From: an uncultured virus (IMG/VR IMGVR_UViG_3300047499_000023)
Lineage: Duplodnaviria > Heunggongvirae > Uroviricota > Caudoviricetes
Virus record (IMG/VR): IMGVR_UViG_3300047499_000023
Direction: 5' to 3' (one strand)
Length of the DNA stretch: 64,000 nt
In this document: positions 7,153-45,398 of the stretch, piece after piece
Numbering within the stretch: the stretch's first letter is position 1
How the letters are laid out: the number at the start of each line of letters is the position of its first letter
Made by a program: the position numbers and the translations under genes
The notes under the pieces: generated by a model
Database searches by the model: none
Told to the model about the DNA's origin: nothing
Seen by the model: only the letters and a program-made list of their open reading frames with translations

Positions 7153-7376
7153 CACAGCGGTTTTGATCCCACCGCATGCGGTCCAACGGGCATCTCCGCC
7201 CACGCGACGACCTGGCCTTCGTCGTACGTCACGGCGTTGTCCGCGACCCACGATTCGCCGTCATGAAAGCCAAGCCACACCGGATCGCTGCAGGAGGGCG
7301 CGTACACGAGTACGGTCAACTCCGAGTCCGGGAGCGAATCGTGCGCGGAATGCCAGGTGATGGTCTCGTTAATCAT
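7152..7376 (-). CDS. DUF551-like protein
   Basis: ITWH....LPD....VL...W.G..D...W...VVAWAEMP. Confidence 0.65.
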   Translation of the reverse strand: MINETITWHSAHDSLPDSELTVLVYAPSCSDPVWLGFHDGESWVADNAVTYDEGQVVAWAEMPVGPHAVGSKPL

Positions 7377-7798
7377 GGCGTGCCCGCCAATCCGCAGAAC
7401 CCCAGCCGTCGTTTCTCCCAGGCCGCGTCGGATTCGATCCATCTGGCATAAGTGCCCTCGGCTGTATCGTACGGCTGCCAAACCCAATCGATCGGCACGT
7501 CGGTTGGGCGGGCGGGCTCCTCGATTGCATGAGGCGAATTCGAGCAACGCCAGTAACCGCGGTTCGGCATCGCCTGGTAGTTCCAGCGCCAGGCCATGCA
7601 ACGCTGGCCGATGCACATCGTATCGTCGCGTTGCTCGGTGACGTACTGCAAATCTCGAACATCGCCGGTGCGAGTCGCTTCCGAATCCGCGAAGCGCAGC
7701 ATGGCGCTCGAGGGACGGTTGCCGACGTGGCTCCCGAGAAACGCAACCCGCGTAAACGGGCACCACTTCGCCTGCGCTTCTGATTCGGTGAGATTCAT
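7373..7798 (-). CDS. hypothetical phage protein
   Basis: TE.EA..KWCPF...CIG..CMAWRW...GFCGLAG motif. Confidence 0.7.
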   Translation of the reverse strand: MNLTESEAQAKWCPFTRVAFLGSHVGNRPSSAMLRFADSEATRTGDVRDLQYVTEQRDDTMCIGQRCMAWRWNYQAMPNRGYWRCSNSPHAIEEPARPTDVPIDWVWQPYDTAEGTYARWIESDAAWEKRRLGFCGLAGTP

Positions 7799-8490
7799 GC
7801 CCGGCCCGCTCCGATCTGCGTCTCCTGCCACACGCGCACGCCCTCGCCAATCACCGACGGTGCTTGCTCTCCCAGCGCGAGGACGGTCTTCCGGATCGCG
7901 ACCTCATTCGGCTCCATGAAGGGCGCGTTGATTTTCGATTTGTCGGTGACTTCGAAGCGCCAGACTTTCGATGTCGTGATGCCGGCGGCCTTCGGCGCCT
8001 CGCGCTGCACGATCGGCGCGACGACGGCCTGGGCGCGCTCGCGGAATTCGTCTGCTTTGTTCTCGCGGCCCTTCGTTTCATTGCGCTCCGCTGCTTGCAG
8101 GAGGCGCGTGCGCTCCGCCTCGGCCGCCTCGTCGAGACGCCGCTGCTCGGCGCGACGCTTCTCCTCCTCGGCGTCGATGTAGGCCCGCATGGCGGCCTTG
8201 ATGGCGCGCTCGCTCTCGACGAGCGGCTCCGCGGCGAGTTTCGCCTGGGCGTTGATCGCGCGGAGGCCTTCGTTGATCGGCTTCGTGATTTTCACGCGGG
8301 CCGCCTCGATGTTGTCCTGCTCGCGCTTGATCGCCTTGAGCGCGTTGGCCGCTTTTTCGTAGCCCTCCTTGCTCTTGATGGCGAGGCCGTTCGCGAACGT
8401 TCGAATGCGCTCGACGGTCGGCGCGATGGCGATAATCGCCGGGTCTTTGAGAAGATTCGGCGTGGCCGATTCAGGCTGCGTGGCTAACAC
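7795..8490 (-). CDS. coiled-coil phage protein next to the recombination genes
   Basis: R..ITKP...IN, long Glu/Arg/Ala helix, W.FEV.D, G+RV.QE C-terminus. Confidence 0.7.
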   Translation of the reverse strand: MLATQPESATPNLLKDPAIIAIAPTVERIRTFANGLAIKSKEGYEKAANALKAIKREQDNIEAARVKITKPINEGLRAINAQAKLAAEPLVESERAIKAAMRAYIDAEEEKRRAEQRRLDEAAEAERTRLLQAAERNETKGRENKADEFRERAQAVVAPIVQREAPKAAGITTSKVWRFEVTDKSKINAPFMEPNEVAIRKTVLALGEQAPSVIGEGVRVWQETQIGAGRA

Positions 8491-9064
8491 TCTGTACTCC
8501 CTTGGAGCGGCTCAGAAACCGCGTGATGTTTAGGCACGACAGGAAAATGCTCCAGTCGGCCGGGTTGGTCTGTTCGATAAAACGATAGTTGTTCGGCAGT
8601 AGCTGCAGCACCGCGCGATGCCGCGGCCGTTCATCCTTCGGGAGCGCCTCCCGATAGGCGGCGGTCTGCGGACCCGCAGAGCGGGGGACCGCCCCTGATT
8701 TCAGATCGAGGAGCCAGGCCGAGCGCTTCCAGAAAATGCGACGATCGAGCGTGCCGGCGTAGGCCAGTTCCGCGTGATAGACCTGTTGCTCGCTCGAGAT
8801 CACCGTGCATCGGGTCTCCTCGAGGAAGCGCTTCCAGCCATTGAGATACGGAACGAGCGCCGGGTCGAGCTCGGCCTCGTCCAACATGTCGCGATCGTAG
8901 AGATCGGTCGCGGTATGAACGTGCGTGCCGAAACGCCGCGCCGCCTCGAGCACGTCAGGCGGCACCCGATCGAAATTGTCGATCGGCCGCAGCGCCTGCG
9001 TGACCGAGGGGACGATCACGCCGGCGACGCGGTAGGTGTGAGTTTCGGCGTCGAAATCGATCAC
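8471..9064 (-). CDS. PD-(D/E)xK exonuclease
   Basis: FD.ETH.Y, PSVTQ, GT.VH, YAGTLD, LLDLKSG, QTAAY; near Bet. Confidence 0.85.
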   Translation of the reverse strand: MIDFDAETHTYRVAGVIVPSVTQALRPIDNFDRVPPDVLEAARRFGTHVHTATDLYDRDMLDEAELDPALVPYLNGWKRFLEETRCTVISSEQQVYHAELAYAGTLDRRIFWKRSAWLLDLKSGAVPRSAGPQTAAYREALPKDERPRHRAVLQLLPNNYRFIEQTNPADWSIFLSCLNITRFLSRSKGVQSVSHAA

Positions 9065-33190: not shown

Positions 33191-33382
33191 ATGGACTACG
33201 ACCCGAAAACGCGCACCGCCGTTTTCACCTACAAGAGCGGCCGCACGACGACCGTGAAGGAGATCACCGAGGCCAAGGCCAAGGAGATGCTCGAGCGCGT
33301 CATGCCGGAGTTCGAACGCCGGGACGGCTGCCTCACTTCGGTCGGCGGTGAGTTCACGCGAGACGACGGTCATGGCGGATAA
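33191..33382 (+). CDS. hypothetical protein, possibly the frameshifted N-terminus of the protease
   Basis: AGGAG RBS upstream; overlaps the protease start. Confidence 0.5.
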   Translation: MDYDPKTRTAVFTYKSGRTTTVKEITEAKAKEMLERVMPEFERRDGCLTSVGGEFTRDDGHGG

Positions 33383-35312
33383 ATCCGACAACCGTACCCG
33401 GAGCGTGTCGTTCTCCTCGGAGACGGACAAGGTCGAGCGCTGGTTCGGGACCGAGATCCTCGACCACTCGCCCAAGTCGATCCGCTCCGAGTTCATCAAG
33501 TCCGGGCGCGCGCCGTTGCTCTTGAATCACGACACCAAGTCGCAAGTGGGCGTGATCGACAAGGCGAGCTTCGACAAGCGGCAGGGCCGGGGCGATGTGC
33601 GATTCGGTCGCACGGGCGCCGCAAGCGATGCCCTGCAGAACGTCGATGACGGGATCCTCGTCAACACGTCAGTCGGCTATCGCGTCTACGAAATGGTGCT
33701 CGAGAAGCAAAGCGACGATGGCGACACCTTTCGAATCACCGACTGGGAGCCCTACGAGGTTTCCCTAGTCGCGGTGCCGGCGGATTCCACCGTCGGCGTC
33801 GGTCGCGCAAGCCGCGACGAACCTGTTCCCAGTAACGCCGGCGCCGCCGGTTCAACGTCCCAGGAGGACACAATGTCAGACGGAAACGCGGCCACGGCAG
33901 ACAGTGGCAATCAGTCTCGTGATGCCAACGGTGGCGAACAGCAGTCGCGCGCATCGGGTGGTGAGCCCAACGCGACCGCCGCCGGCGGTGCCGCAGCGGC
34001 CGCCGCGCGCCGCGGCGTGGAGATGGATGCGATCGCGATCGAGAATTCGCGCATCAAGGGCATTCAGAACCTCTGCCAGATCAATCGGATCGAGGAGCGT
34101 CTGCAGCGCCAGTGGATCACGTCGGGTCTCTCGATCGAGGGCGTGACCGAAGAGCTGCTCAAGATCATCGAGCACCGTGGCAAGGTCTCCCCGCGCCCCG
34201 TGTCGCATCTCGATTTGACGCAGAACGAAACGCAGCGCTTCTCGGTTTGCAAGGCGATCTTGGCCGCGCACACCGGCGACTGGAGCAAGGCGGGCTTTGA
34301 GGGCGAGTGCTCACGCGCGATCGCCAACAAGCTGCAGACGCATCCGGACCCGAAGAAGTTCTACGTCCCCTACGACGTGCAACAGCGCGGCATCTCCCGG
34401 GCCGATATCGCGAAACGCGACTGGGCCATGGGCGCGCGCAACGGCATGGGTGCCATGACCCGCGCCGATACGGTCGGAGCCGGCAACGCGGGCGGCTACC
34501 TGGTCGCCACCGAGCTCGTCTCGTTCATCGATCTCCTCCGCAATCGCACGGTCGCCTTCCGCATGGGTGCCCGTTCGCTCGCGGGCTTGGTCGGTAACGT
34601 GACGATCCCGAAACTCACCGGCGCTGCGACGGCGTACTGGCTGGGTTCGGAGACGACCCAGATCACCGAGGCCAACCAGGTGTTCAGCCAGTTGGCGCTC
34701 TCGCCGAAGAATGTCGGTGGCTACACCGAAATCTCCCGGCAGTTGCTCGTGCAGTCCACCCCGGACATCGAGGGCATCGTCAATTCGGATCTCGCGATCA
34801 TCACCGCCCTCGCGGTGGACCTGGGCGCGCTCTCCGGATCCGGCACGTCGGGCCAGCCGGTCGGCATCACCAACACCACCGGCATCGGTGTTGCGACCGC
34901 CGGCGACATGGCGACCATCGGGTACCAGGGCTGTCTCGACTTCCAGTATCAGGTGTGGAACGCGAACGTGATTCCGGTGCGCGGCGGTTACGCCACGAAC
35001 GGCAACGTCGCCGAGCTCCTGATGACCCGCACCAAGTTCGCGAACACCTATTCGCCCCTCTGGGACGGAACGATGTGGGACGCGGATTGCTGCGGCTTCC
35101 CCGGCATGAGCTCGAAGCAGATCGCGGCGAGCACCATGATCTTCGGCGACTGGGATCAACTCCTGATCGCAGAGTGGGGCGTGCTCGAGCTCGAGGTCAA
35201 CCCGTACGCCAACTTCCAGGCCGGGATCATCGGCGTGCGCTCGTTCATGACGTGCGATGTCGGTCTCCGGTACCCGGGAGCGTTCTGCCAGAACGGCGCC
35301 ACGATCACCTAA
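33372..35312 (+). CDS. prohead protease (U35-like) fused to HK97-fold major capsid protein
   Basis: SFSSE...EILDH, PLL.NHD, SVGYRV, WEPYEVSLV.VPAD; then GGYLV, A.W..E, FGDW..L capsid motifs. Confidence 0.92.
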   Translation: MADKSDNRTRSVSFSSETDKVERWFGTEILDHSPKSIRSEFIKSGRAPLLLNHDTKSQVGVIDKASFDKRQGRGDVRFGRTGAASDALQNVDDGILVNTSVGYRVYEMVLEKQSDDGDTFRITDWEPYEVSLVAVPADSTVGVGRASRDEPVPSNAGAAGSTSQEDTMSDGNAATADSGNQSRDANGGEQQSRASGGEPNATAAGGAAAAAARRGVEMDAIAIENSRIKGIQNLCQINRIEERLQRQWITSGLSIEGVTEELLKIIEHRGKVSPRPVSHLDLTQNETQRFSVCKAILAAHTGDWSKAGFEGECSRAIANKLQTHPDPKKFYVPYDVQQRGISRADIAKRDWAMGARNGMGAMTRADTVGAGNAGGYLVATELVSFIDLLRNRTVAFRMGARSLAGLVGNVTIPKLTGAATAYWLGSETTQITEANQVFSQLALSPKNVGGYTEISRQLLVQSTPDIEGIVNSDLAIITALAVDLGALSGSGTSGQPVGITNTTGIGVATAGDMATIGYQGCLDFQYQVWNANVIPVRGGYATNGNVAELLMTRTKFANTYSPLWDGTMWDADCCGFPGMSSKQIAASTMIFGDWDQLLIAEWGVLELEVNPYANFQAGIIGVRSFMTCDVGLRYPGAFCQNGATIT

Positions 35313-36230: not shown

Positions 36231-36575
36231 TTGTTCGTCGAAAATACGGCGGCGTTCCTCGCGGACTTTCCCGTGCCCGCGAGTTACGCCGCCGCCGGCG
36301 GCTGGTCGCTCGATGGACTGGCGACGCTCGATTCATCGAACACACTCGATGGCGGCGGCCGCGTCATTACGGGCGTCGTTTTTTTCGATGAGCCCGATCG
36401 GGAGATTTTGAACAATCGGGCGATATCGTCCGACTACACGATCACGTATCGCACGCTCGACTTCCCGGGTCTGGTGTCGGGCGATGAGATCACTGTCAAC
36501 GGCACGCTGTACGTCGTGCTCCACGCCATGAAGATCGAAGACGGCGTGTTCTCTCGCGCCATCCTGGAGCTCTAA
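36231..36575 (+). CDS. head-tail joining protein (FII-like)
   Basis: TTG start MFVE...FL.DF; FDEP...L..GD.I.V.G..Y.V.....DG.F....L. Confidence 0.7.
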   Translation: MFVENTAAFLADFPVPASYAAAGGWSLDGLATLDSSNTLDGGGRVITGVVFFDEPDREILNNRAISSDYTITYRTLDFPGLVSGDEITVNGTLYVVLHAMKIEDGVFSRAILEL

Positions 36576-37016: not shown

Positions 37017-37577
37017 GTGTCGCAAATCCCCCTCGACAACCCGACGCGCGGCACGACCACGCTCCTCGCGCAATGCGTGAACTCGAGCGGCACGGTGGTC
37101 GGCACCACGAGCTCCCAGCTCGCCGACGGCACCACGTTGGGCGACGGCACCGGGGATCTTGCCTTCAACCTCGGCCGGAAGTTGAAGCAATGGGGCGCCG
37201 ACGTGAACACCATGACCAGCTTGATGCTGGGCAACTATCTCGCGGTGGCACCGGCGGCGAGTCAGAACAATTGGGACCCCACCGGCGGATCACCGGGAAA
37301 CCTCGCGGCGATCTCGCGCCTCGATTTGAATCCGTCGCAGTCGATCGACATCACGGGCCTGATCGCCACCGACATCGCCGACGAAAAGCGGATCACCGTG
37401 CGCAACGTGAGCCAGCTTTATACGGTGACGTTGCAACACCAGAACGTCGCGTCCGCGGCCGCGAATCAGTTTTACGGCCCGGGCTTGGACGACTTCATTC
37501 TCAACCCGGGCATGGCCGTCGACATCATCTATTACCTGATCCCGAGCGGCCCGACCTACTGGGTCATCAAGCCTTGA
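37017..37577 (+). CDS. fibre/decoration-like protein with DGTGD motif
   Basis: GDGTGDLAF..G.KL; C-terminal domain shared with the next gene. Confidence 0.65.
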   Translation: MSQIPLDNPTRGTTTLLAQCVNSSGTVVGTTSSQLADGTTLGDGTGDLAFNLGRKLKQWGADVNTMTSLMLGNYLAVAPAASQNNWDPTGGSPGNLAAISRLDLNPSQSIDITGLIATDIADEKRITVRNVSQLYTVTLQHQNVASAAANQFYGPGLDDFILNPGMAVDIIYYLIPSGPTYWVIKP

Positions 37578-37634
37578 AACCCCGAGTGACCTAAGAACGT
37601 GCTGCTCATATTCAGCGCTCATGGAGCCTCCGCA

Positions 37635-38600
37635 ATGACAACGACAGCCTTTAATCCGATCGCCATCGGATCTACGGTCAACGATGGCACGGGCGATGAG
37701 CCGCGGGCTGGCTTCACGAAGATCAAATCGGATCACTCGAATCTCTTGGCGTCCGTCGCGCGTCGGCAGACGTTGCCGGGCACGTTCGGCGTGACCTCGA
37801 GCGCGGGGTCGACCACCGTGCTCAACGACACGACGCAGGCCTGGGCGACCAATCAATTCGCCGGCCAGACGTTGACGATTCTGACGGGCACGCTCGCGGG
37901 CGTCTCCGAGCCGATCGCGAGCAACACGGCGAACTCGATCACGGTATCGAGCGCGTTCGGAAGCGCGATCGGGTCGGGCGTCGGGTATCAGGTATCGCCG
38001 GCGATCCTGACCGCGGGCTCCGATGGGTTTGCGACGACCGCCGGCGGCACGGGCCCGTCGACGCTGGTCGATGCCAACCAGGCCTGGACCACGAACGAAT
38101 GGGCGGGCCAGGGCGTGACGCTCCTCGCCGGCGCGTTCGCAGGCCAGACGAGCCCCATCGTGTCGAACACCGCCACCGCGTTGACGCTGTCGATCAACTT
38201 CGCGTCGGCGATCGCCGCCGGGACTCCCTACGCGATCGGGCCGTTGCCGGTCATCAATAACTTTTCGAGCACGGTCTCCGCATCGCTCGCGGCGGCGCAG
38301 AACAATTACTCCCCGACCGGCTGGGGCCCGGGCATTGATCGGCTGAAGATCACCCCGACGGCCGCGGGCGTGCAGCTCTCCGGATTGCTCGCCACCGGGA
38401 TCGCCGACGGCGCGCAGGTGCTCCTGCGGAACACCGACGCGACGAACACCTACAACCTCACGCTGCTGCATGAGTCTGGGAGCTCGAGCGCGGCGAATCA
38501 GTTTCAACTTCCGGGCGCAGCATCCTTTGTGCTGCCGCCTTTCGCGGGCTGCATGCTCGTCTACGACTTGGCTTCCACTGCATGGACGGTACTGTCATGA
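37635..38600 (+). CDS. fibre-like protein with T4 gp9/gp10-type N-terminal motif and two internal repeats
   Basis: IAIGSTVNDGTGDEPRAGFTKIK; two D..QAW.TN..AG....L.G..AG....I.SNTA..L repeats. Confidence 0.75.
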   Translation: MTTTAFNPIAIGSTVNDGTGDEPRAGFTKIKSDHSNLLASVARRQTLPGTFGVTSSAGSTTVLNDTTQAWATNQFAGQTLTILTGTLAGVSEPIASNTANSITVSSAFGSAIGSGVGYQVSPAILTAGSDGFATTAGGTGPSTLVDANQAWTTNEWAGQGVTLLAGAFAGQTSPIVSNTATALTLSINFASAIAAGTPYAIGPLPVINNFSSTVSASLAAAQNNYSPTGWGPGIDRLKITPTAAGVQLSGLLATGIADGAQVLLRNTDATNTYNLTLLHESGSSSAANQFQLPGAASFVLPPFAGCMLVYDLASTAWTVLS

Positions 38601-39688
38601 AGAAACTTCTCGCTGCCCTCGTAGGGTTTCTGCCGGCGCTCGCCTTCGCGCAGAGCTTCGGTGTGTTCCAACCCGGAGGCGATCTCGCCGGCGCGGGCTC
38701 GACTTGGAACAATCAGGTCATCGCCCCGGGAGCCGTGACCCTTGCCAAGCAAGCGACCGTCGTCGGCAACGTGTCGGGCACGCCGACGCCGGCGATCATC
38801 GGGAACAACACGTCGACCGCCGCGACGCCCGCGGCGCTCGCGCCTTTGCAGGTTGCGAACGTCCTGTCGGCGGTTCTTAGCGTCAACAATGTCTGCATCG
38901 GCACCTGCCTCACCGCCTTCTCGGGCGTGACCATCACTGGCACGACGCTCCCGAGCGGACTGACGACCGCCGTCGATGGCACCACCTTGAGCGCGGGTCA
39001 GACGGTGTTGATCACCGGCTATACGACCAATGCCTATCTCAACGGCATTTACATCGCGGGTACCGGAACCTGGACTCGCGCTGTGAACTTCATCGGATCG
39101 ATTGCGGCCAATTGCGACGTGGCGGTCATCGTCCGCAACGGAACGACCTATCAGGGTCACATGTTCAAATTGGGCACGGGCAGCGCGATCACGATCGGCA
39201 CGACGGCGCAGGTTTGGTCGGATGCCCCGATTGCGTCGGCCACCAACACGACGTTTGGAACGGTGAAGGTATCGGCCACCGGCAATACCACGGTCGCTTC
39301 GACCGGAGGCGTGGCCGCGGTCAATGACTGTGTTTCGTTCGGAGACACGAACGGCTCCATTACCGACTACGGCGACGCCTTGGACACCACGGGCCCTTGC
39401 ATCGTCGGCGATGCGCACGGGCATGTCGTATTCGATGTGGGGCCGCCGAGCGTTTCGGGCAGCGGCTGCTCGCTCACAAGCGGTGGCCGGGACTCAACCG
39501 GCTCCGTCGTCGCGACGGGCGCCGACACCTGCACCGTCACGTTCTCGGGCGCCTTCGCCATCGCGCCCAACTGCACGGCCACCGGCGTCGGCGCGACCGT
39601 CATCCCCTATTTGAACGCGCTGCCGACCACCACCGCAGCCGTGTTCAAAACGACCGCTGCCGGCACGTTCACTTACCACTGCCTCTAA
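38597..39688 (+). CDS. signal-peptide-bearing tail-fibre-like protein
   Basis: MKKLLAALVGFLPALAFA-Q; VDG.TL..G..VL......NGIY.....WTRA fibre motif; several Cys. Confidence 0.75.
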   Translation: MKKLLAALVGFLPALAFAQSFGVFQPGGDLAGAGSTWNNQVIAPGAVTLAKQATVVGNVSGTPTPAIIGNNTSTAATPAALAPLQVANVLSAVLSVNNVCIGTCLTAFSGVTITGTTLPSGLTTAVDGTTLSAGQTVLITGYTTNAYLNGIYIAGTGTWTRAVNFIGSIAANCDVAVIVRNGTTYQGHMFKLGTGSAITIGTTAQVWSDAPIASATNTTFGTVKVSATGNTTVASTGGVAAVNDCVSFGDTNGSITDYGDALDTTGPCIVGDAHGHVVFDVGPPSVSGSGCSLTSGGRDSTGSVVATGADTCTVTFSGAFAIAPNCTATGVGATVIPYLNALPTTTAAVFKTTAAGTFTYHCL

Positions 39689-39692
39689 CATC

Positions 39693-40985
39693 ATGCGAAA
39701 GATCGGGCTCTTACTCGCGCTGCTGGGCGCGAGCGTCGCCGCGTGGGCGACCAATCCGCCGAGCATTCTTAACAACACCGACCACATTTCGAATCCAGCT
39801 TCCTCCTCGAGCGTCACGGCTGCGCTGACGGCGCTGGGGATCACCTGGACCGGAACGCCGAGCTCGAGCGTGCTGACGGTCAGTCAGACATGCCCGACAG
39901 GCACGACCGCCGGCGTGAGTTGTTTTGCCCCGGGCGGCCCCACCTTTCTGCCGCCGGCGACGATCATCGCCAACGCGCAAAATCTGTCGACCAGCGAATA
40001 TGCGCCGGGCAGCGCGACCTCGGTCACTCCGCTCACGCCGTACTACCTGATCAATCAGTCCTCGACCGGGTATCAGGCGAGCTACGACCAGGCGAACTAC
40101 CCCGCGCTGGTCGCCGGGTCCATGGCCTACTCGATGGCCTACTGCGGCTTTCCCCTGGCCGGCGATCAGCCGCCTGTCGCGTTCGTGACCGCACTCCCCA
40201 ACCAGGGCGTGGGCCCGACGCCCATCCCGAGCAACGTGGGCGGCGTTCTCGGAAGCAATTGCGGCTATGCGCAGGGGATCGAGTTCAGCGTCCCGACAAC
40301 CTGCAGCGCGACCGACTGCCAATTCGCCTTCAATTCGAGCATCGAAGCGGGCTCCCCGTCCGCCACCGAAGAAGGCGTCACGGCGATCCTCGCGGCGTTG
40401 AAGTCCGCAAACCCGACTTGGACCTGGGGAGACATCAAGGGCGCGCTGCGGCAGACGGCGAGCAATTGGGCAACCGGATATGCCGTCACAACCGGCAGCG
40501 GCTCGTCCGTCGCGTTCGGCTACGGCAACATCAGCTACTCGAGCGCCGCGGCGATCTCCGGCACGAGCTCGATCTACCTCCAGCCGCCGAGCGTGCATCT
40601 GGCGAATGCGGGCGCCTTCGCGCAGATCATCGTCTACCCGTTCCTGCAGACGAGGCGCACGTCCGAAGTCATCTACGCGTTCACATCGGCGCCGACCTGG
40701 CCGTCGTACACGACGGGTTGCAGCAGCGGCCCTTGCAACGAGTACACGTACTCGCAGCTCGCGGCGATCGCGAGCAGCTACGGCGGCACGCGCATCGCGC
40801 AGACCTCGGGCGGCGTGACCCCGACGTTTATCTATTACCCGCCCTCGAGCGGCACCTATTACTTCGTCGTCTTCACGACCGATGCCACGGGCGCGCTGGG
40901 CGGCTCTGAGCACTACTCGCGCGGCGAACTGTTCTCCGCGCAATCGGCGGCGCTGACCGTTTCGACATCTTGCGTTAGGCAATAA
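39693..40985 (+). CDS. secreted Cys-rich protein with a degenerate subtilase (S8)-like segment
   Basis: MRKIGLLLALLGASVAAWA signal; AILAALKSANPTWTWGDIKGALRQTA...FGYGNI. Confidence 0.65.
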   Translation: MRKIGLLLALLGASVAAWATNPPSILNNTDHISNPASSSSVTAALTALGITWTGTPSSSVLTVSQTCPTGTTAGVSCFAPGGPTFLPPATIIANAQNLSTSEYAPGSATSVTPLTPYYLINQSSTGYQASYDQANYPALVAGSMAYSMAYCGFPLAGDQPPVAFVTALPNQGVGPTPIPSNVGGVLGSNCGYAQGIEFSVPTTCSATDCQFAFNSSIEAGSPSATEEGVTAILAALKSANPTWTWGDIKGALRQTASNWATGYAVTTGSGSSVAFGYGNISYSSAAAISGTSSIYLQPPSVHLANAGAFAQIIVYPFLQTRRTSEVIYAFTSAPTWPSYTTGCSSGPCNEYTYSQLAAIASSYGGTRIAQTSGGVTPTFIYYPPSSGTYYFVVFTTDATGALGGSEHYSRGELFSAQSAALTVSTSCVRQ

Positions 40986-40994
40986 GGGGCGGCC

Positions 40995-42446
40995 ATGGGA
41001 TGGACTTTCGACGGCTCACTGCCGACGTTCGATCACGGCGCGGGCTACACCTTCGACGGCTCCTCGAGCTCCGGCGCGCCCGTCATCACCGCGAACCCAT
41101 CGAATGCGAGCGTGACGGCGCCCGCCACCGCGACGTTCACGGCGAACGCCACGGGCTACACGTCCGTCCAGTGGCAGACCGATTCGGGATCTAGCGGCAC
41201 GACCTGGTCGAACATCTCCGGGGCCACGTCGACGAGCTACACGACGGGCGCGACCAGCGCGCTCACGAACGGCTGGCAGTATCGCGCCGTCTTCACGAAC
41301 GGATCGGGATCCACCGATACGCTCGATGCGACGCTGACCGTTACGTCGGTGCCGATCGTCATCGTCAACCCGCTGAGTCAAGTCATTCAGACGGGCTCGA
41401 CGGCAACGCTCTCGTCGGTGGCCGACGGCTACCCGGTGCCCACCGTGCAATGGCAAACCGACTCAGGCACGGGCGGCGTGACCTGGTCGAACATCTCGGG
41501 CGCTACCTCGAGCACCTACGTCACCGGCGTCCTCACCAGCGCAGAAAACGGCTGGGAGTATCGCGCCGTTTTCACCAATACCCAGGGCAGCGCCACGTCC
41601 GCGGCGGCGACGCTCGCGGTTGTCTCGATCATTTCCACAGGAGTAAAACCCATGCAGTTCGTATTTGGTCCGGGCAACCTGATCGTCACCCCGCTCACGG
41701 ATGCCTACGGAAACACCATCAGCCCGACCACGCCCCGGAAGCTAGGAGCGTTCCAGGAGGCGTCGTTCGATACCTCCTCCGAGAACAAAATGCTCTACGG
41801 GCCCAACCAGTTCCCGCTCGCGGTCGGCCGCGGCAAGGCGAAGGTGGGCTTGAAGGTCAAGGCCGCGCAGTTCTCGATCGATCAGTGGAACGCGATCTAT
41901 ATCGGCCAGCCAGTCAATCAGACCGCCGGCATCATCGCGGCCTACGTCGATGCCGTCGGCAGCACGATCCCGGCGACCCCGTACCAGATCACGCCGGTCA
42001 CGACCTACGCGTCCTACCTCACCGGCACGTCGCCCGCGTTCGACTACGACCTCGGCGTCGCTGACGGCTCCGGCAACGCCTACAAGGCCGTCACGGGCAC
42101 GCCCACCACGGGCCAGTATGCGGTGGCAGGCGGCGTCTATACGTTCGCGGCCGCCGATACCGGCAAGACGGTGTTCATCTCGTTTGCGTACACCGCGACC
42201 AACGCGGCCGGCGCGAAGAACGCGTACGTGAACATCAACAACTTGCCCATGGGCCAGGCGCCGTTCCTGCAGGTCGATCTCTCCTGCGTGTACGGCGGCA
42301 ACCAGCTCTTCGTGACGCTGTTCCAGGCGATCGCGAGCAAGCTGTCCTTCGCGACCAAGCTCGACGACTTCGCGATCCCCGATCTCGAGTTCGACGGCTT
42401 CGCCAACTCGGCCAACGTCGCCTATCGCATCGCCGCGGGACAGTAA
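40995..42446 (+). CDS. major tail (tube) protein with two N-terminal Ig-like domains; nested start at 41652
   Basis: Two P.I..NP...WQTDSG..W.NISGAT..Y...NGW.YRAVFTN Ig repeats; then MQFVFG.G...FPLAVGRGK...K.DDF.IP tube domain; precedes chaperone and tape measure. Confidence 0.85.
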   Translation: MGWTFDGSLPTFDHGAGYTFDGSSSSGAPVITANPSNASVTAPATATFTANATGYTSVQWQTDSGSSGTTWSNISGATSTSYTTGATSALTNGWQYRAVFTNGSGSTDTLDATLTVTSVPIVIVNPLSQVIQTGSTATLSSVADGYPVPTVQWQTDSGTGGVTWSNISGATSSTYVTGVLTSAENGWEYRAVFTNTQGSATSAAATLAVVSIISTGVKPMQFVFGPGNLIVTPLTDAYGNTISPTTPRKLGAFQEASFDTSSENKMLYGPNQFPLAVGRGKAKVGLKVKAAQFSIDQWNAIYIGQPVNQTAGIIAAYVDAVGSTIPATPYQITPVTTYASYLTGTSPAFDYDLGVADGSGNAYKAVTGTPTTGQYAVAGGVYTFAAADTGKTVFISFAYTATNAAGAKNAYVNINNLPMGQAPFLQVDLSCVYGGNQLFVTLFQAIASKLSFATKLDDFAIPDLEFDGFANSANVAYRIAAGQ

Positions 42447-42452
42447 AACGCC

Positions 42453-42797
42453 ATGATCGAAGCCAACGAAGAATTGTGGGAAGGGGAAGAGATCACGCTG
42501 CGCGGGCGGAAGTACATCCTGCCGCCGCTCAACTTTGCAGGCCTTGCGAAGTTCCGAAAGCGCTTGAACAGCGTGGCCGAGCTCGACGCCGACGCGCAGG
42601 CCGAGCTCTTTTTCGAAATCGTGCTCTGGTGTTTCCATCGTAACTATCCGTCCATGACGATGGCTGATTTGAAGGAGATGGCGGACCTTAAAAACTTCGG
42701 ACGCATGCGCGACATCGCGCTGCAGACCTCGCGATTCTCGAAGGTCGGGGGATCGACAGTCCCGGGAAAAGAGGCGGCGGATCTCCCACAGATTTAA
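42453..42797 (+). CDS. tail assembly chaperone (gpG-like)
   Basis: Between tube and tape measure; Y.LPPL.F, RNYP motifs; slippery site near the 3' end. Confidence 0.8.
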   Translation: MIEANEELWEGEEITLRGRKYILPPLNFAGLAKFRKRLNSVAELDADAQAELFFEIVLWCFHRNYPSMTMADLKEMADLKNFGRMRDIALQTSRFSKVGGSTVPGKEAADLPQI

Positions 42798-43042
42798 ACG
42801 ACTTGCTGTTTTTCCTGGTGCTATCGACCGGGCACACGTTAAGCCAGATCAAAATCGAGTGGGACTTTCCGCGTCTGGAACGATGGATTGAATACTGCGA
42901 AAAGCACCCGCCGCTGCAGGCCATGATCGCCGCCTATCTCGGCGTGGGCGACGCCAGGAAGGCGGGCCAGATGCGTCTCACGGAAGAGAATTTCGAGAGC
43001 TTTATTTCGATGTTGAATGCCGAATCCAAGCTGACCGGCTGA
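42764..43042 (+). CDS. -1 frameshift extension (gpT-like) of the chaperone
   Basis: G GGA AAA heptamer at 42764-42770 in the correct phase; -1 frame is open to 43042. Confidence 0.85.
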   Translation, partial: GKRGGGSPTDLNDLLFFLVLSTGHTLSQIKIEWDFPRLERWIEYCEKHPPLQAMIAAYLGVGDARKAGQMRLTEENFESFISMLNAESKLTG

Positions 43043-43064: not shown

Positions 43065-45398
43065 ATGGCGAACGATGTAAAGCTAGACATCACCGGCGAT
43101 CCGTCGGGTCTAGCGGCCGCGCTCGAGGAGGCGAAGACCAAGGTGGTCGAAGCCTCGAGCGAGATGCGCGAATCGCTCGAGACCATCAACGAGTCGTTCA
43201 ACAAGATCAACGAGACTATCGTTGCGTTCACCGCGGTCCTCGCGGGCGCCGGCGCCTTTGGCGAGATCATCGCCTCGACGACCAATCTCAACTTCCAGTC
43301 GATGGAGTTGGGCAAGCAATTCGGCATCTCGGCGACGCAGGCCTCCGTTCTGAAAGAGGCGCTCAACCAGACCTTTCTCACGCAGGATCAATTCTCGGCC
43401 GCCGGCGCGCGCCTGACGCGCACGCTCTCGACCAACGAAGTGGCCGTGCGGGACTTGGGCGTTGAGACGCGCGAGGCCTCCGGCGGCTTCCGGCCGCTCG
43501 TCGACATCATGACCGATGTCAACGAGAAGCTCCTCGAGATGAAAGAGGGCGCCGATCGTAACGTCGAGGGCACCAAGGTCTACGGCCGCGGCTGGTCGCA
43601 GGTGATCGACATCCTGCGGCTCACCAAGGAGTCGATGGCGGAGGCCGATCAGGGCGCCACCGAACTGAATCTCAAGGTGTCGCAGGAGAGCCTCGCCGCC
43701 ACGCTCAAGTACAAGTCCGCCGTCGTCGAGATGAACGAGACGCTCGAGGCGGTCCGGAACACGATTGGCCTTGCGCTCCTGCCGGCGCTCACGGATGCGG
43801 CCAACTGGTTTAGGTCCACGGGCCCGGCGGCGATCGCCAACACCCGCGAGGCGATCCGCGGCATCGTCACCGTCTTCGCCGTCCTCCGGAACGAGCTCAA
43901 GGACGAGGTCGATTTCATCGTCGGCGAGTTCGTCTCGCTCGTGACCGAGATCGAGGGCGACGCCAAGGCGATCAACAAGGCGCTGCATTTCGATTGGGCG
44001 GGCGTCACCGCCGAGCTCAAGGAAAAGACCGACGAGCAAAAGGCGATCTACGCGCAGTACCAGGACGACCTGGTCGCCAACAAGAAGCAGGCGAACGACC
44101 TGATCGCCTCGCTCGATGCGAACTTCTCGAACCAGAACACGCCCACCGCGGCGCCCGGGGGTGGCGAGGGCGCCGACCCGGCCAAGGGGAAGGACGACAG
44201 CCGGAAGCTCCTGGACGAACGACTCGCGCTGCTCGAGAAGGAATTCCGGGCCGACGCCGAGTACGTCGACAAGATGCGCGAGGCCCAGGAGCAGGCCTAC
44301 AAGGCGGAGGAGGCCGCGTTCTCCAAAGCGGCGAGCCAGCGCATCGCGATCGCAGAGCAGGAGGTCGCGCTCGAGGCGGCCGCCTACGGCAAAGGATCGC
44401 CCCAGTACGAGGCCGCCCAAAAGCATCTCGTCGAGGTTCAGCAGCAGGCGCAGGAGCAGCTCCGTCAGATGGCGGACGCCTTTGCGAAGGTCGAGGACGA
44501 GCGTCAGCAGCAATCGCTCGCCGAAGACGAGAAGATCCTGCAGGAGAAATTCCAGCGGCACGAGATCAGCAACGCGCAGCTCCTCGCGGGCGAGATCGCG
44601 CTCGAGGACAAGCGGGCAGCGCTCGCGCTCAAGGCGGCCGAAGAACAGAAGGCGTTGATCGACCCGCTGCACGACCCGGTCGCGTACGCCAAGATCCTCG
44701 CGGACATCGAATCGCTGGAACTGCAGCACGACAACCGCATTTCGCAGATCCGGAAGGAAGCTGCGCAGCGCGATCGACAGGTGTGGGACTCCTTGAACAA
44801 GGAGATCCAGAGCGGCTTCGCATCGAACATCACGAAGCTGGTTGAGGGCACCGAGACGTTCAGCCAGGCGATGCGAAACCTGCTGAAAGACGTGCTCAAT
44901 TCCATCATCCAATTCCTTGCGCAGTGGGTGGTGCAACACGCGGCGACGATGCTCGCGAACCTGGTGCAGACCAAGGTCACGGCCCTCGGGCAAATTCAGG
45001 CGAATGCCGGTGTCGCCGGCGCCGCCGGCGTCGCATCGTTCGCGGGCGCGCCCTGGCCCCTGGACGTGGGCGCCCCGGCGTTCGGCGCCGAGGCCGCGTC
45101 CGCTGCCGCGAGTTTCTCGACCCTGTCCGCCGAAGGCGGGTACGACATCCCGCGCGGCATCAATCCTCGAGTGCAATTGCACGAAGAGGAAATGGTGTTG
45201 CCGTCGCCCATCTCCAAGGGGCTCCGCAACCTCATTGCCGCGAACGATGGGGGCGGCCGGGGAAGCCGCGGCGGCGCGGGCGATACCAACATCAGCGTCA
45301 GCGCCATGGACTCGAAGTCCGTCGAACGTGCGCTCAGGGGCAACAATGGCCCGCTGCACAAGGCGATGCGGGACCTCAATCGGCGTAAGGCGAGATGA
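43065..45398 (+). CDS. tape measure protein
   Basis: 777 aa Ala/Glu-rich helical protein; C-terminal SAEGGYDIP...LH..EMVLP. Confidence 0.9.
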   Translation: MANDVKLDITGDPSGLAAALEEAKTKVVEASSEMRESLETINESFNKINETIVAFTAVLAGAGAFGEIIASTTNLNFQSMELGKQFGISATQASVLKEALNQTFLTQDQFSAAGARLTRTLSTNEVAVRDLGVETREASGGFRPLVDIMTDVNEKLLEMKEGADRNVEGTKVYGRGWSQVIDILRLTKESMAEADQGATELNLKVSQESLAATLKYKSAVVEMNETLEAVRNTIGLALLPALTDAANWFRSTGPAAIANTREAIRGIVTVFAVLRNELKDEVDFIVGEFVSLVTEIEGDAKAINKALHFDWAGVTAELKEKTDEQKAIYAQYQDDLVANKKQANDLIASLDANFSNQNTPTAAPGGGEGADPAKGKDDSRKLLDERLALLEKEFRADAEYVDKMREAQEQAYKAEEAAFSKAASQRIAIAEQEVALEAAAYGKGSPQYEAAQKHLVEVQQQAQEQLRQMADAFAKVEDERQQQSLAEDEKILQEKFQRHEISNAQLLAGEIALEDKRAALALKAAEEQKALIDPLHDPVAYAKILADIESLELQHDNRISQIRKEAAQRDRQVWDSLNKEIQSGFASNITKLVEGTETFSQAMRNLLKDVLNSIIQFLAQWVVQHAATMLANLVQTKVTALGQIQANAGVAGAAGVASFAGAPWPLDVGAPAFGAEAASAAASFSTLSAEGGYDIPRGINPRVQLHEEEMVLPSPISKGLRNLIAANDGGGRGSRGGAGDTNISVSAMDSKSVERALRGNNGPLHKAMRDLNRRKAR

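Follow-up and report, generated by a model that had tools for sequence, protein, structure and literature searches.

A phage tail tube gene with nested start sites and an N-terminal triple TFD peptide: sequence signature and a proposed role in anchoring side appendages

The Tube Gene and Its Surroundings

The DNA analyzed here, referred to as the window, is a stretch of 64,000 nucleotides from an uncultured virus of the Caudoviricetes (IMG/VR IMGVR_UViG_3300047499_000023). It carries a siphophage module in the order portal (30776), protease-capsid (33348), terminator (36576), four inserted genes (37017-40985), tail tube, chaperone pair and tape measure (43065-45398). The tube gene is located between the phrog_4204 terminator and the chaperone pair, in the canonical tube-chaperone-tape measure order and in a module without a sheath gene. 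The features of this region are:

40984..40989, plus strand: AAGGGG, Shine-Dalgarno-like site of the upstream start; it overlaps the preceding ORF's stop (40983-40985); duplex of -7.6 kcal/mol with a generic anti-SD
40995..41060, plus strand: residues 1-22, comprising the upstream ATG and the triple TFD peptide; kept in extended relatives, co-occurring with gp9/gp10-N-like genes, proposed docking site
41076..41348, plus strand: Ig-like repeat 1, putative optional spacer or adhesin (Pfam, self-comparison)
41349..41627, plus strand: Ig-like repeat 2, putative optional spacer or adhesin (Pfam, self-comparison)
41639..41643, plus strand: AGGAG ribosome-binding site of the internal start, within the coding linker; 8-nt spacer, -6.9 kcal/mol
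41652..42446, plus strand: tail tube core of 264 amino acids from the internal ATG (phrog_8234); siphophage tube fold with an inserted domain, as modelled on a relative
42453..43042, plus strand: pair of tail assembly chaperone genes; slippery G-GGA-AAA at 42764-42770, -1 frame open to 43042

On its sequence, the chaperone slippery site reads as an ordinary frameshift site of the G/GT type. Neither promoters nor terminators beyond chance were found between 36000 and 43200, and there was no indication of an internal transcript. A single ORF (33348-35312) fuses the prohead protease to the major capsid protein, and two genes of the tail module (38582-39688 and 39693-40985) have, by eye, signal-peptide-like hydrophobic N-termini, which is odd for virion genes; both are conserved in the related phages L003 and L065. 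The former matches a head-decoration PHROG and the latter weakly matches a subtilase (Peptidase_S8, E 0.009). L003 also carries what by eye is a TnpB/IS605-like ORF (7342-8523), inserted between its chaperone and tape measure genes.

The tube gene (40995-42446) is a single uninterrupted frame of 483 codons. Residues 3-22 form a triple W/T-T-F-D repeat, which the preliminary description of this locus overlooked, and residues 28-211 comprise two Ig-like repeats that are 53% identical to each other; Pfam Ig_3 matches two stretches of the frame (E 2.3e-9). The ATG at 41652 encodes Met220 and leaves 264 amino acids. Residues 220-479 align with positions 2-251 of the 255 of phrog_8234 (E 6.6e-60), and since the alignment begins at position 2, the tube family starts at the internal Met. 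The preliminary description had reported an ORF running from two Ig-like repeats into a tube domain, with an internal ATG preceded at 8 nt by its own AGGAG; both profiles bear out the former, the re-read coordinates of the latter are identical, and its question as to whether homologs begin at MQFVFG is answered by the start of the phrog_8234 alignment. An extension of the SPP1 frameshift type is not what is found here, as the extension is N-terminal and in frame, and the tube frame ends at 42446, ahead of the chaperone start at 42453.

The tube fold was modelled on a relative that is 76% identical (P0010; mean pLDDT 76). The best matches of this model, both by Foldseek (8xkn_B, E 3.7e-10) and by VIA (6xgr_A, Z 11.2, rmsd 9.2, 227 residues aligned), are tail tubes, and its extension (residues 1-38) has a pLDDT below 50 and is disordered in the monomer model. 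As in the tubes of YSD1/Chi, JBD30 and SPR, the modelled fold contains an inserted second domain; identity to these tubes is 11-13%. Portal-tail adaptor chains of GP4, KHP30 and crAss001 give weak alignments (Z 7.0-7.3) to the inserted domain (model residues ~126-224). In the distant tube relatives P0127, P0129, L025 and L028, which are 489-508 amino acids long, this domain is expanded internally instead of an N-terminal extension being present.

Integrity of the Junction

A fusion of this kind could be an assembly artefact, in which a separate Ig gene had been deprived of its stop. A TAA in another frame does lie just past the Shine-Dalgarno sequence (41644-41646), and the comparison that can be made rests on contigs. 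The stretch is present in nine runs (two of them possible sources), and contigs of four others (X3, X5, X7, X9), from a single habitat and year, were compared. One independent X3 contig of 941 nt spans 41320-42260 and crosses the junction with 0 differing letters and 0 gaps. Indels near the junction are not listed in any of the four runs, of which the listed X5, X7 and X9 pieces stop short of bridging it. The preliminary description had named a stop between the Ig part and 41652 as the observation that would speak against the fusion; at contig level, the X3 sequence contains none. The same open fusion is found in seven other phage clusters, among them L002 and L003 (tube identity 76 and 80%), whose extensions measure 33 and 172 amino acids. 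On the strength of the bridging contig and the open fusion in relatives we reject the artefact, the probability of which we regard as negligible; the fused frame with an internal start is real and conserved.

Extensions Across the Tube Family

Among 130 proteins examined, including that of the window, 18 have a real N-terminal extension of 33-674 amino acids. Overall, extension lengths range from 29 to 674 amino acids, and the number of Ig or FN3 domains from none to two. All 18 keep a Met at the tube start. Eight consist of a peptide of ~33 residues without Ig or FN3, and in the other ten Ig and/or FN3 domains are added; the suggestion of the preliminary description that Ig arms are the purpose of the long form is thus not supported. 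A triple [WF]-T-F-D-like repeat is located within the first 45 residues of 17 of the 18, and a variant lies internally in P0124. Judged by sequence, the constant part of the extension is this N-terminal peptide rather than the Ig domains.

At the DNA level, 188 loci with a complete tube start collapse into 107 clusters at 90% identity. A fused frame with internal ATG and ribosome-binding site recurs in 8 of these, which fall into two lineages; seven were found by profile and one (L092) by eye. The preliminary description had asked whether related phages have a stop ahead of the tube start, and the upstream frame is open in all eight extended loci; as a stand-alone ORF upstream of the tube, the peptide was found in none of the clusters. 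In a tree built from 118 cores, with two long clusters skipped and the 12 unextended database proteins left out, the extension state changes 6 times vs 19.6 in shuffles, again with two lineages. A scan with P0045 returned no locus. No cultured phage with an extension was seen among seven records at 36-38% identity, the upstream DNA of which lay outside the comparison. Of the full-length relatives in the database that reach 68% identity, 18 in all, 12 are recorded from the internal Met only, at the level of protein records.

Two Start Sites

For the internal ATG of the extended loci, pairing energies with a generic anti-SD lie between -6.9 and -12.1 kcal/mol in 8/8 cases, comparable to those of the genuine starts of 99 unextended tubes (median -6.9 kcal/mol). 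Shine-Dalgarno strength (-6.5) is reached at the internal tube ATG in all eight, whereas among 413 ordinary internal ATGs in these loci it is reached by 12. The argument for nested starts rests on this site and not on the Met itself, because a second Met column within the tube core is likewise invariant (21/21). The upstream starts range from -2.7 to -10.8 kcal/mol and are GTG in three of the eight, and predicted folding is stronger around the upstream than the internal start in 8/8, one being a tie. For the window itself, the upstream site is slightly stronger than the internal one (-7.6 vs -6.9 kcal/mol).

These data give good support to a sequence signature of nested starts in a tail tube gene, and conservation of site and open frame upholds that part of the preliminary description; the two products themselves we infer. 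Both starts probably fire. That the long form is the minority product, as had also been proposed, is fairly likely: the weaker folding around the internal start and the upstream GTG codons agree with it, and the stronger upstream Shine-Dalgarno sequence of the window does not.

The TFD Peptide and Its Candidate Partners

Three further genes of the window are relevant to the peptide:

36231..36575, plus strand: head-tail joining gene, with a variant triple peptide inserted at 36303-36353 (sequence comparison)
37017..37577, plus strand: gene with a T4 gp9/gp10-N-like 'DGTG' motif (at 37140), candidate trimeric partner; Atlas neighbor cluster 97% PF07880, score 0.93, 172 features shared
37635..38600, plus strand: second gene with a gp9/gp10-N-like motif (~37668), candidate trimeric partner; PF07880 E 0.016 and 0.0072, below the curated cut-off

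At their N-termini the products of 37017 and 37635 have the motif G-x-D-G-T-G-D and then a helix, and both score below the curated cut-off of PF07880. Among the PDB matches of the motif at E<=10, four of six are gp9/gp10 (best E 0.11). The monomer model of the 37017 protein is poor (pLDDT 55, helix 48-70) and matches no fold at Z >=5. When three copies of the 37650-37790 domain were predicted together with the peptide as a complex, the score was 0.04 (mark 0.32), a result counted neither for nor against binding.

The peptide also occurs outside the tube. The insertion in the head-tail joining gene recurs in L003, L092 and L122 and is absent from L002, L072 and L148; the L122 protein (P0138) corresponds to Pfam Phage_attach. 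Copies were likewise found at the N-terminus of small proteins. Against 1.84 billion representatives, the peptide profile gave 13 matches, two of which are unrelated repeat proteins (P0136, P0140). At 8 bits neither the variant of L092 nor the copies in head-tail joining genes were picked up by the profile, so that other weak copies may be missed. No PHROG, no meaningful PDB sequence and, by tblastn, no GenBank phage matched the peptide.

A profile of the partner was built from nine segments out of six positive records, and 98 of the 107 clusters were submitted to it. Genes with the gp9/10-N-like motif were found in six of eight extended records and in none of the 90 without an extension; completeness reaches 90% or more in 21 of the latter. 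Because the six positive records supplied the model, only the negatives and the 79-locus test described below are independent. Partner matches are absent from L072, a 6-kb fragment, and from L092/L130 (record G003). The latter phage is complete, and a variant of the peptide is found on its tube as well as on its head-tail joining protein; two other large genes lie between its terminator and tube, which may represent a different type of partner.

A scan of DNA with the peptide alone yielded four stretches, three of them known and one from a new phage (L226), in which the gene immediately upstream of the peptide carrier has the gp9/gp10-N-like motif and the carrier weakly matches a fiber adaptor (Gp77); PF07880 itself matched nothing in the L226 and L130 records. 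A scan for TFDxxxxTFDxxxxTFD gave at least 120 stretches, of which 80 loci were taken and, after removal of one duplicate, 79 retained. Of these 79 viral loci, 52 have a partner gene within 4 kb; none of the 99 unextended tube loci does, these controls being siphophage tail modules and not matched T4-like ones, and many of the carriers being kin. In 47 of the 52 the partner is the next gene and starts within 120 nt of the stop of the carrier, and the link is present in 17 of 31 carrier families. Both of the two neighbors scanned pass the PF07880 cut-off; the profile that found them came from window-type genes below it.

A precedent for such a peptide exists in T4, where the gp9 trimer binds a docking loop of gp7, residues 258-292 (10.64898/2026.03.06.709160), through the gp9 N-terminal domain (PMC3004832). 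This loop has three aromatic residues seven apart, which are kept in all nine T4-family segments aligned, one of which ends in LTFD. Exact heptad spacing is found in 19 of 36 peptides and also in the T4-family loops, the spacings in the window peptide being 7 and 8. In both systems a short three-aromatic heptad peptide goes with a protein that has a gp9/gp10-N-type motif, a trimer in T4 and a candidate one here. In T4, however, the peptide belongs to a baseplate protein of fixed copy number, inside which it forms a loop, whereas here it is N-terminal, on a tube isoform. The peptide profile did not single out the gp7 loop among T4 ORFs, and by heptad score the loop comes fourth in gp7 and does not reach the best 12 of 14,762 T4 windows. 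A different aromatic heptad stretch of gp7, residues 94-111 (L127), ranks second of these 14,762 when compared with the peptide set. The likeness is one of pattern only; the peptide may work like the gp7 loop, and membership in one family is unsupported.

With these observations in mind, we consider it somewhat probable that the peptide binds gp9/gp10-N-like trimers encoded by 37017 and/or 37635, bearing in mind that gene adjacency is not binding. We put forward more tentatively, at a little under even chances, that the triple TFD is a general portable docking peptide for trimers of this type that has moved between tube, head-tail joining, adaptor and baseplate proteins of unrelated tailed phages, and that the second start places it on a fraction of tube subunits, making the number of appendages tunable.

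Proposed Mechanism and Alternatives

In the model that we propose, the internal start would give rise to a plain tube subunit of 264 amino acids, probably the bulk of the tube, and the upstream start to a form of 483 with an identical core and an outward N-terminal arm. This long form would enter the tube facing outward. In its arm, two Ig domains would tether the triple TFD peptide, whose three repeats would bind the three chains of a gp9/gp10-N-like trimer made of the products of 37017 and/or 37635. The density of side appendages along the tail would follow from the ratio of the two starts; the Ig and FN3 domains may be exchangeable spacers or weak adhesins that set the reach, and the peptide copy on the head-tail joining protein would supply a fixed set of appendages at the neck. 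The analysis itself establishes the sequence anatomy, its conservation, the co-occurrence of peptide and partner-type genes and the tube fold; the rest of the model is inferred. We give the whole explanation, in which a second start provides tube subunits for the attachment of trimeric side appendages, an even chance.

Some alternatives concern which products are made. If only the long form were produced, every subunit would carry an arm, and the internal ATG and its GGAG would be relics of the ancestral start, retained by descent. The upstream start indeed has its own Shine-Dalgarno sequence and adjoins the previous stop, and the tube Ig domains of lambda, T5 and YSD1 are carried, at the C-terminus, by every subunit (PMC8718954, PMC7385642). 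A site of Shine-Dalgarno strength has, however, been kept in 8/8 loci across tube identities of ~47-80%, it employs GGA for Gly even though this accounts for 9% of Gly codons, and the internal start is the less folded one; arms of up to 674 amino acids on all subunits would, moreover, presumably crowd the tube. We consider this reading improbable, and marginally more so a further one, according to which the long form is confined to the first or last ring or stays outside the tube, or the short form alone is made. At least 29 open upstream codons do occur by chance in 14 of 99 unextended clusters, but four of the eight loci have extensions of 117-273 codons with intact domains and starts of their own, and the extension was never found split from the tube.

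Other alternatives accept two isoforms and question the role of the peptide. The long form could display Ig domains for weak binding to surfaces or mucus, with the peptide incidental, as suggested by the two Ig repeats of the window, by the Ig or FN3 domains in 10 of 18 extended proteins and by the minority Ig-bearing subunit gp17.1* of SPP1, present at 3:1 (PMC8718954). Eight of the 18 nevertheless bear the peptide alone, and it is the peptide, not the Ig, that is common to all lineages and tracks the partner gene. The peptide could also be an adhesive or metal-binding repeat, or another kind of dock, with the gp9/10-N link reflecting a shared cassette. Homology to the gp7 loop was not demonstrated when tested, the complete phage L092/L130 combines a variant peptide with no partner match, and 27 of the 79 TFDx3 loci lack a partner in the DNA examined. 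A single cassette does not, however, explain L148, in which the partner genes are ~10 kb from the peptide, past the tail tip genes, nor does it sit easily with a link that appears in 17 of 31 unrelated carrier families. Both of these readings appear to us unlikely, one as much as the other.

Relation to Known Systems and Significance

The anchoring model draws on elements that are known separately. Published accounts describe a 3:1 mix of gp17.1 and gp17.1* in the SPP1 tube through frameshifting (PMC8718954), Ig extensions added by frameshift on phage proteins (PMC5009743), and accessory adaptors that add fiber sites in the podophages GP4 and DEV (PMC13730344). Like SPP1, the window has a siphophage tube for which one gene would provide two subunits, the longer one with Ig-fold domains; unlike in SPP1, where the extension is C-terminal and made by frameshift, it is N-terminal, attributed to nested starts, and has the peptide rather than the Ig as its constant part. 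It likewise differs from YSD1, whose Ig domain is C-terminal and on every subunit (PMC7385642). The annotation of T4 contains the in-frame internal starts gp17', gp21' and gp26'. Nested in-frame initiation also gives two products in lambda, namely S105/S107 and C/Nu3. None of these genes codes for a tail tube, and none determines how many appendage sites there are. Mixed tubes by C-terminal frameshift and nested starts in phage genes are therefore known, and the new element would be an N-terminal tube isoform from nested starts: in the literature searched, mostly outside subscription journals, we found no description of an N-terminally extended or dual-start tail tube, nor, in the same literature, of a general docking peptide of this kind.

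If our reading of the peptide is true, a very common and so far unnamed phage motif would gain a function, and side appendages could be located on the virion from sequence alone. It would also mean that gene callers, which pick one start, hide such isoforms. For phage structural biology, this would provide an attachment tag of 20 residues together with a device that sets the ratio at which it is displayed.
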